Positions 115 through 206 of a DNA stretch of 40,137 nucleotides are shown here, one piece after another (positions within the stretch are counted from its first letter, which is position 1; every line of letters begins with the position of its first letter). A program made the translations under genes and the position numbers. The stretch comes from Escherichia phage phiHAO1-1. The DNA lies in sequence record PP079211.1; one strand, given 5' to 3'. The notes below the pieces were generated by a model. The model was not told the DNA's origin. It saw only the letters and a list, made by a program, of their open reading frames with translations, and searched no databases.

Positions 115-206
115 CCTACAGTCTCACTACCTACAGTCATTGACTCCTGCTGTACCTACAGTCTCAACCATAAGACACCAACACCTACAGTCATAGACCT
201 ACAGTT
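115..206 (+). repeat. Array of five CCTACAGT short direct repeats flanking the terminal repeat
   Basis: CCTACAGT(C/T) at 115, 130, 155, 184 and 198; analogous to the short repeat arrays next to the T7 terminal repetition. Confidence 0.6.

Follow-up and report, generated by a model that had tools for sequence, protein, structure and literature searches.

Short direct repeats beside the terminal repeat (TR) of phage T7 have been known since its genome was sequenced, and the names of the two arrays, SRL and SRR, reportedly go back to Dunn and Studier in 1983. In the T7 sequence, the TR is 160 bp long and contains CCTAAAG three times; about 12 copies, including the variants CATAAAG and CCTAACG, lie to the right of the TR (175-361), three copies of CCTAAAG lie to its left (39634-39706), and all T7 copies are on the plus strand. 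T3 has the core CCTAAAG/CTTAAAG on both sides of its TR, K11 has CCTGAGG(T), gh-1 has CCATAGG with five copies at the left and two at the right, and SP6, which belongs to a different subfamily, has CCTTAGT(G), with about seven copies of CTTAGT at the left and two of CTTAGTG at the right. Beyond this group, the pac hexamer repeats on both sides of the P1 cut, the R sites of lambda cosB and the SPP1 pacL and pacR regions are repeated recognition elements of small terminases.

The small terminase gp18 recognises a pac element, and gp19 makes the cut (PMC9860248). At the concatemer junction, an RNA polymerase-lysozyme complex pauses and engages gp18/gp19 (PMC3276506); the class II or 'CJ' pause signal has been described (PMC3276506; bioRxiv 10.64898/2026.02.12.705533) and is annotated in the K11 record too. 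The gp18 proteins of T3 and T7, which are ~92-93% identical, are interchangeable, and the packaging specificity of these two phages has been attributed to gp19 and other terminal sequences (PMC3276506). In a genome-wide insertion screen of T7, most genome-end loci were individually non-essential, and only 142 and 162, at the TR boundary, were essential (PMC11482910). Our full-text literature searches on CCTAAAG, on SRL/SRR and on short repeats near terminal repeats found no relevant paper. Here we compare with these systems the genome ends of Escherichia phage phiHAO1-1 (PP079211.1), whose whole sequence of 40,137 nt we refer to as the window.

Terminal repeat and concatemer junction of phiHAO1-1

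Homology and Pfam matches place phiHAO1-1 among the K1F-like (Kayfunavirus) genomes of the T7 group. Over the ends of the window, identity amounts to 98-99.6% with Escherichia phage phiHAO2-2 and to 87-97% with K1F, CR44b, Vec13, SH3 and many other Kayfunavirus records. We mapped the TR via homology to the deposited genome ends of K1F, Vec13, SH3, SH4 and CR44b. Since the record was opened inside the single assembled TR copy, the join of the two window ends represents the concatemer junction. The TR starts at 40033 and continues across this join to ~78, a total of ~183 bp with the right boundary uncertain by ~5 bp. The deposited ends of K1F have 178 bp in common, beginning with TCTCACAGTT, and the deposited right termini of K1F, Vec13, SH3, SH4, CR44b and others end in GAGTCTC(T), directly before TATCTGT. 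An earlier note on this DNA had inferred a terminal repeat, which is real, as it matches the deposited ends of these five phages. The main features of the junction region and the genes relevant to it are as follows.

40033..40137, plus strand: first 105 bp of the TR, starting with TCTCACAGTT, assigned by homology to deposited ends
1..78, plus strand: last ~78 bp of the TR, ending in ...GTGTCTCT, assigned by homology to deposited right termini
79..85, plus strand: ATCTGTA, counterpart of the T7 concatemer-junction class II RNA polymerase pause signal (ATCTGTT), adjoining the right edge of the TR
39436..39455, plus strand: phage RNA polymerase promoter, phiOR counterpart, directed rightward across right array and TR as far as the pause signal
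36766..37029, plus strand: gene 18, encoding the small terminase (Pfam DNA_Packaging_2), a candidate for the trans-acting factor that reads the repeats
37577..39340, plus strand: gene 19, T7-type large terminase (Pfam)

The sequence CTATCTGT is found at the right TR boundary of T7, T3, K11, gh-1 and SP6 as well. In gh-1 (locus L038, 210-226), the junction pause motif is doubled in tandem at the TR boundary, CCCTATCTGTCCCTATCTGTAAG. The idea that the repeats echo the genome-end sequence (TCTCACAGT) was considered and rejected, since the deposited right ends stop just before ATCTGT and not at a repeat.

At the left end, no phage RNA polymerase promoter of the consensus CTAAACTATCACTATAGGGA was found between 1 and 2595 of the window with up to three mismatches allowed; the first one starts at 2596. 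[quoted passage not shown] The ocr gene lies at 671-1006 (Pfam). Within the TR, a leftward sigma-70-like hexamer pair, TAGACA-17-TATCGT, is located at 41-69 on the minus strand as a consensus match only; it resembles the leftward host promoter A0, which is annotated inside the T3 TR and the T7 SRL. The hits of a host promoter and terminator scan were no more numerous than in shuffled sequence, and Rfam gave 0 matches at E <= 1 in window 1-1000.

Direct repeat arrays on both sides of the terminal repeat

The octamer CCTACAGT occurs exactly 16 times in the window, compared with 1.58 times expected from dinucleotide shuffles (largest count 5; 0 of 100 shuffles reach 16). Judged from these shuffle counts, which correspond to ~0.8 expected copies per strand in 40 kb, five copies within 91 bp cannot be due to chance. 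The left array consists of five same-strand copies of ACCTACAGT at 114-206, starting 35 nt right of the TR end; its exact octamers start at 115, 130, 155, 184 and 198 on the plus strand, each of the five preceded by A. The right array consists of three plus-strand copies at 39956-39995, 37 nt left of the TR start, with exact octamers at 39971 and 39987 and a one-mismatch copy, CCTACGGT, at 39957. No plus-strand open reading frame of at least 40 amino acids covers either array, in keeping with a non-coding position. The individual units are listed below.

114..123, plus strand: left-array copy 1, ACCTACAGTC
129..138, plus strand: left-array copy 2, ACCTACAGTC
154..163, plus strand: left-array copy 3, ACCTACAGTC
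168..176, plus strand: degenerate unit CCATAAGAC, situated between copies 3 and 4 and in register with them, at 13 and 16 bp
183..192, plus strand: left-array copy 4, ACCTACAGTC
197..206, plus strand: left-array copy 5, ACCTACAGTT
225..234, minus strand: inverted degenerate copy, ACCTTAAGTC on the minus strand, closing the left array
39956..39965, plus strand: right-array copy 1, ACCTACGGTC, invariant in 22 relatives
39970..39979, plus strand: right-array copy 2, ACCTACAGTG
39986..39995, plus strand: right-array copy 3, GCCTACAGTA, less conserved than copies 1 and 2
40049..40057, plus strand: degenerate copy CCTCAAGTC inside the TR, at TR position 17

The earlier note had counted five left and three right copies of a heptamer with irregular 14-29 bp spacing. 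Both counts hold, with the qualification that one right copy is the variant CCTACGGT and not an exact one, and the irregular spacing is confirmed by start-to-start distances of 15, 25, 29 and 14 at the left. The unit itself had to be redefined: it is not a heptamer but an 8-mer within a 10-bp core, A-CCTACAGT-C. Furthermore, we found motif-like copies beyond those of the earlier note at 168-176, 225-234, 39872-39879, 39885-39892 and 40049-40057. The unit type of 168-176 (CCATAAGTC/CCATAGGTC) is expanded in relatives, and the inverted copy at 225-234 forms together with copy 5 an imperfect inverted repeat, 190-211 / 220-241, that is 77% complementary.

Conservation of the core and turnover of the left array

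Two pattern scans of IMG/VR and GenBank records yielded 23 distinct right and 19 distinct left Kayfunavirus junctions, and the motif is present in 23/23 of the former and 19/19 of the latter. The earlier note had named a lack of conservation in relatives as evidence against its reading; arrays were found in every Kayfunavirus junction examined, and this check thus does not refute it.

The left arrays hold 2-7 exact copies per genome, and members of the looser family CC[TA/C]NNNGT number 4-13; 87% of the left-array copies end in GTC. Their spacing is quantised, being 14-16 bp, or roughly double this value if a degenerate unit (CCATAAGAC, CCATCGGTA) lies in between, and the arrays have been rearranged among relatives by duplication and loss of 14-16 bp units while the core persists. 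One relative (L011) has five identical CCTACAGTcctacaa units, another (L005) has five identical aaccataggtctcaac units, and a third (L018) has two exact copies. The left array, as noted in L005, L011, L016, L032 and L033, behaves as a variable-number tandem repeat, with 4-5 identical units of 15-16 bp in some genomes. Within the Kayfunavirus arrays, the gh-1-type unit (CCATAGGTC) and CCTCAAGTC occur as minor units.

A sequence logo was calculated from 69 distinct 28-mers centred on exact copies. Outside the 8-mer by which they were selected, only A at position -1 (1.74 bits) and C at position +8 (1.34 bits) are informative, and all remaining flanking positions stay below 0.75 bits, so that the spacers are free. 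Because the information is confined to the 8-mer plus these two positions, the conserved site is the 10-bp sequence ACCTACAGTC. Judged from these alignments, a conserved core with free spacers has the appearance of a series of protein sites and not that of a young tandem repeat.

The right array behaves differently from a tandem repeat in turnover, in that it has no slippage variation and is nearly invariant among relatives. Per position, copy 1 is invariant, copy 2 differs in ~5% and copy 3 in ~13% of relatives; for the spacer that separates these two copies, the figure is ~22%. In two relatives (L008 and L010), right-array copy 3 is replaced by CCTTAAGAGGG.

These patterns bear on the view that the arrays are an ancestral, slippage-prone and nearly neutral filler between the TR and the first promoters, with no sequence-specific reader. 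The free shifts of copy number (2-7) and arrangement among close relatives, including the identical 15-16 bp runs of L005, L011, L032 and L033, are what such a filler would give, and the tolerance of most T7 genome-end loci to insertion (PMC11482910) agrees with it. We nevertheless consider it unlikely: the two-sided, same-orientation layout is kept across two subfamilies though the core has changed, the cores are intact where the spacers have diverged, the right array lacks slippage, and, as described below, the 10-mer is enriched outside the arrays.

Inverted repeat, hairpin and palindrome left of the terminal repeat

The right flank has a second layer of organisation, in which two inverted copies of the motif precede the three direct ones.

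39829..39869: hairpin with a perfect 11-bp stem (39829-39839 / 39859-39869), just downstream of a gene 19.5-like open reading frame
39864..39893: left arm of a ~30-nt imperfect inverted repeat, CCTTAGCTACTGTAGTCAAGGACTTTAGGT, pairing with 39956-39986 (right-array copies 1 and 2)
39872-39879, minus strand: inverted motif copy ACTACAGT, in the left arm
39885-39892, minus strand: inverted motif copy CCTAAAGT, in the left arm
40007..40019: palindrome TTTTGG-A-CCAAAA, TTTTGGACCAAAA, 13 nt before the TR start

The two arms, 39864-39893 and 39956-39986, are separated by 62 nt. A new observation of this work is that one arm of this conserved ~30-nt inverted repeat is made up of the right copies. Per position, 0-5% of relatives deviate in right copies 1 and 2 or in the inverted partners of these, compared with 9-22% in the loops and spacers. 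The stems of the 39829-39869 hairpin are invariant, and its loop exists in two versions among relatives. At the place equivalent to this hairpin, T7, T3 and K11 have a different hairpin in common (AGGGATTC...ATCCCT), and an RNase III site is annotated in gh-1. In one relative (L008), the left arm carries CCTACAGTC in direct and not in inverted orientation; the inverted arrangement is not universal.

This structure raises the alternative that fold-back DNA hairpins beside the TR (39864-39986 and 190-241) prime or guide the duplication of the junction TR, with the repeats not being protein sites at all. A 'hairpin end' model of this sort is said to have been put forward by Chung, Nardone and Hinkle in 1990. 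When the region was folded as single-stranded DNA, both the hairpin and the inverted repeat formed (-32.7 kcal/mol, z = -2.6). The near-invariant ~30-nt arms around a diverging 62-nt loop with indels in L010 and L017 would suit such a model, as would the K11 genome, where copies of that phage's motif make up an inverted repeat of 23 nt (87%) at the equivalent place; those of T7 and T3 are weaker. Against it, we found no compensatory substitutions in the inverted repeat among the relatives compared, the outer right arm varies (GAGG, GCCA, CACA) with no change in the left arm, and most left-array copies have no inverted partner. The inverted repeat at the end of the left array, of which T7 and T3 have weak equivalents, is weak in the second Kayfunavirus clade. 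On balance, the fold-back explanation seems distinctly unlikely.

Between the right array and the TR, the 38 nt directly left of the TR (39996-40032 region), which include the palindrome, are nearly invariant across the 23 junctions. This block would be a better candidate than the repeats for recognition of the cleavage site at the left boundary.

Copies of the core elsewhere in the genome

Outside the arrays, the genome body contains nine copies of CCTACAGT, where one to two would be expected, and three copies of the full 10-mer ACCTACAGTC, where 0.1-0.2 would be expected.

7866-7875, plus strand: 10-mer copy
23657-23666, plus strand: 10-mer copy
38611-38620, minus strand: 10-mer copy
4990, 5591, 7228 and 34393, plus strand: 8-mer copies
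8694 and 17821, minus strand: 8-mer copies

The inverted 10-mer at 38611-38620 sits in gene 19, ~1.4 kb left of the TR, and is invariant in 15 relatives, its 20-nt context included. Where related loci reach that far, the exact 10-mer is on the strand opposite to the arrays and, where checked, ~1.4-1.5 kb left of the TR. The recurrence of the 10-mer in the genome body, including this invariant inverted copy in gene 19, is also new here. The copies at 4990, 7228 and 7867 share one reading frame, CCT-ACA-GTC.

Similarity to promoters and primase sites

Another explanation would give the repeats a role in transcription, as decoy or modulator sites for the phage or host RNA polymerase near the pause site of the junction. 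Read as its complement, ACTGTAGG, the core departs from the promoter core ACTATAGG at a single base, and a promoter-like site at 8677-8696, CTAAACTATCACTGTAGGAC, has exactly ACTGTAGG in place of the usual ACTATAGG. Also, the left array begins 29 nt past ATCTGTA, and the annotated T7 promoter A0 lies within SRL, pointing leftward. The similarity to promoters, however, covers only 8 bp and is not shared by K11 and SP6; the polymerase specificity region (-17 to -5) is missing at the repeats; and the right array is located upstream of the pause. A transcriptional role is therefore improbable.

A role in the replication of the genome ends, with the repeats serving as recognition or loading sites for primase or as part of a secondary origin, appears more improbable still. 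The GTC with which 87% of the left copies end is the minimal trinucleotide of T7 primase, and T7 has secondary origins near both ends. Yet the repeats of T7 itself mostly end in GAC or GCC, to our knowledge CAGTC is not a preferred pentamer of T7 primase, and phiHAO1-1 lacks a phiOL-type left-end promoter to make an origin. Primase sites as the main reading were rejected, as T7's own repeats mostly have no GTC.

A possible role in DNA maturation

We tentatively favor, at a probability of roughly 0.4, that the repeats are redundant recognition sites for the DNA-maturation machinery at the concatemer junction. Their location at both TR boundaries, their uniform orientation, the 10-bp core with free spacers, the persistence of the core through turnover and its genus-specific sequence together point to a sequence-specific reader encoded by the phage. 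A host-encoded reader is unlikely because T7/T3 and phiHAO1-1 share E. coli as host but differ in the core. As the reader, the small terminase gp18, an oligomer, would be the best candidate, in concert with gp19 and the RNA polymerase paused at ATCTGTA. The bound gp18/gp19 complex may hold both sides of the single junction TR, and meanwhile this TR would be nicked, duplicated and packaged right end first. The inverted repeat of the right copies could fold back in single-stranded DNA during these steps.

Several observations bear on this proposal. First, gp18 as the reader fits the fact that T3 and T7 share both the CCTAAAG core and interchangeable gp18 proteins. Second, since T3 and T7 share the repeats and their specificity has been attributed to gp19 and other terminal sequences, the repeats cannot be the determinant of packaging specificity. 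Third, the identity of gp18 tracks phylogeny (92% between T7 and T3, ~72% for K11 and ~45-49% for the window and gh-1), and the identities of gp19, gp17.5 and gp18.5 do likewise, which speaks neither for nor against gp18 as the reader. Fourth, the tolerance of the T7 genome ends in the insertion screen (PMC11482910) implies that any role of the arrays is redundant or auxiliary. At last, the proposal is weakened by the highly variable copy number (2-7) and by the direct repeats on both sides, which misfit a two-fold-symmetric nicking complex.

A bolder version of the terminase-docking proposal would make ACCTACAGTC a genus-specific 'address' read by the terminase: core switches would co-evolve with gp18/gp19, the address would decide which concatemers can be matured by a co-infecting T7-like phage, the conserved extra copies (38611-38620, 7866 and 23657) would be functional secondary sites, and the left array would tune packaging efficiency. 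We regard this version as doubtful.

This kind of array has long been known in T7, and the window, which has a different core, adds little by itself. What the comparison contributes is an architecture kept throughout Autographiviridae with a core that changes from genus to genus. The comparative facts, namely the core switching, the hypervariable left arrays, the inverted-repeat context and the dispersed copies, are modestly useful and will not surprise a specialist. The left array is a fast-evolving copy-number locus and a possible strain marker for K1F-like phages, the core switching offers a natural swap of T7-type and K1F-type core together with gp18, and the findings are relevant to K1F-type transducing particles in the choice of a minimal cis-acting packaging region.

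Comparison with T7 and other packaging systems

The earlier note had drawn a structural analogy to T7 while pointing out a motif other than the CCTAAAG of T7. A direct comparison with the T7 sequence supports this analogy, with the same layout and orientation, and the motif, CCTACAG, indeed differs from CCTAAAG, by one base. Both genomes have non-coding arrays in a single orientation just outside both TR boundaries, with the bigger array on the left-end side, an irregular spacing of 13-30 bp and a class II pause signal between the TR and the left array. The window unit CCTCAAGTC at TR position 17 stands at the place of the first TR-internal CCTAAAG of T7, and the inverted right-flank copy at 39885-39892 is exactly CCTAAAGT, in line with a motif related to the CCTAAAG core.

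The two phages differ in the core, CCTACAG(T) in the window and CCTAAAG in T7, and in unit length, 14-16 bp compared with ~13 bp. The window has 5 left copies and T7 ~12, with 3 right copies in both; the distance from the TR to the left array is 35 nt in the window and 14 nt in T7; and the right copies of the window are embedded in a much stronger inverted repeat than those of T7. T3, K11, gh-1 and SP6 share the architecture of the window, each genus with its own core, and K11 resembles the window also in having a right-flank inverted repeat built from its own motif. The layout is thus family-wide in Autographiviridae and the core genus-specific.

The origin iterons of plasmids and phages resemble the arrays of the window as direct repeats of a short unit in non-coding DNA. 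They differ in that the window lacks both a Rep-type initiator gene and a neighbouring AT-rich or DnaA-box module, and in that T7-group origins are promoter-dependent. Replication-origin iterons were rejected as an explanation, as there is no phage promoter at the left end and no Rep-like open reading frame beside the array.

The repeats of the window bracket both TR boundaries and thereby flank the terminase cleavage sites. In this respect they resemble the P1, lambda and SPP1 elements, which are likewise short, repeated and placed around the cleavage region of a packaging site; the likeness is a functional model only, and homology of sequence or protein is not expected. With respect to T7, the repeats are the K1F-group counterpart of the SRL and SRR arrays, and the resemblance very probably reflects homology.
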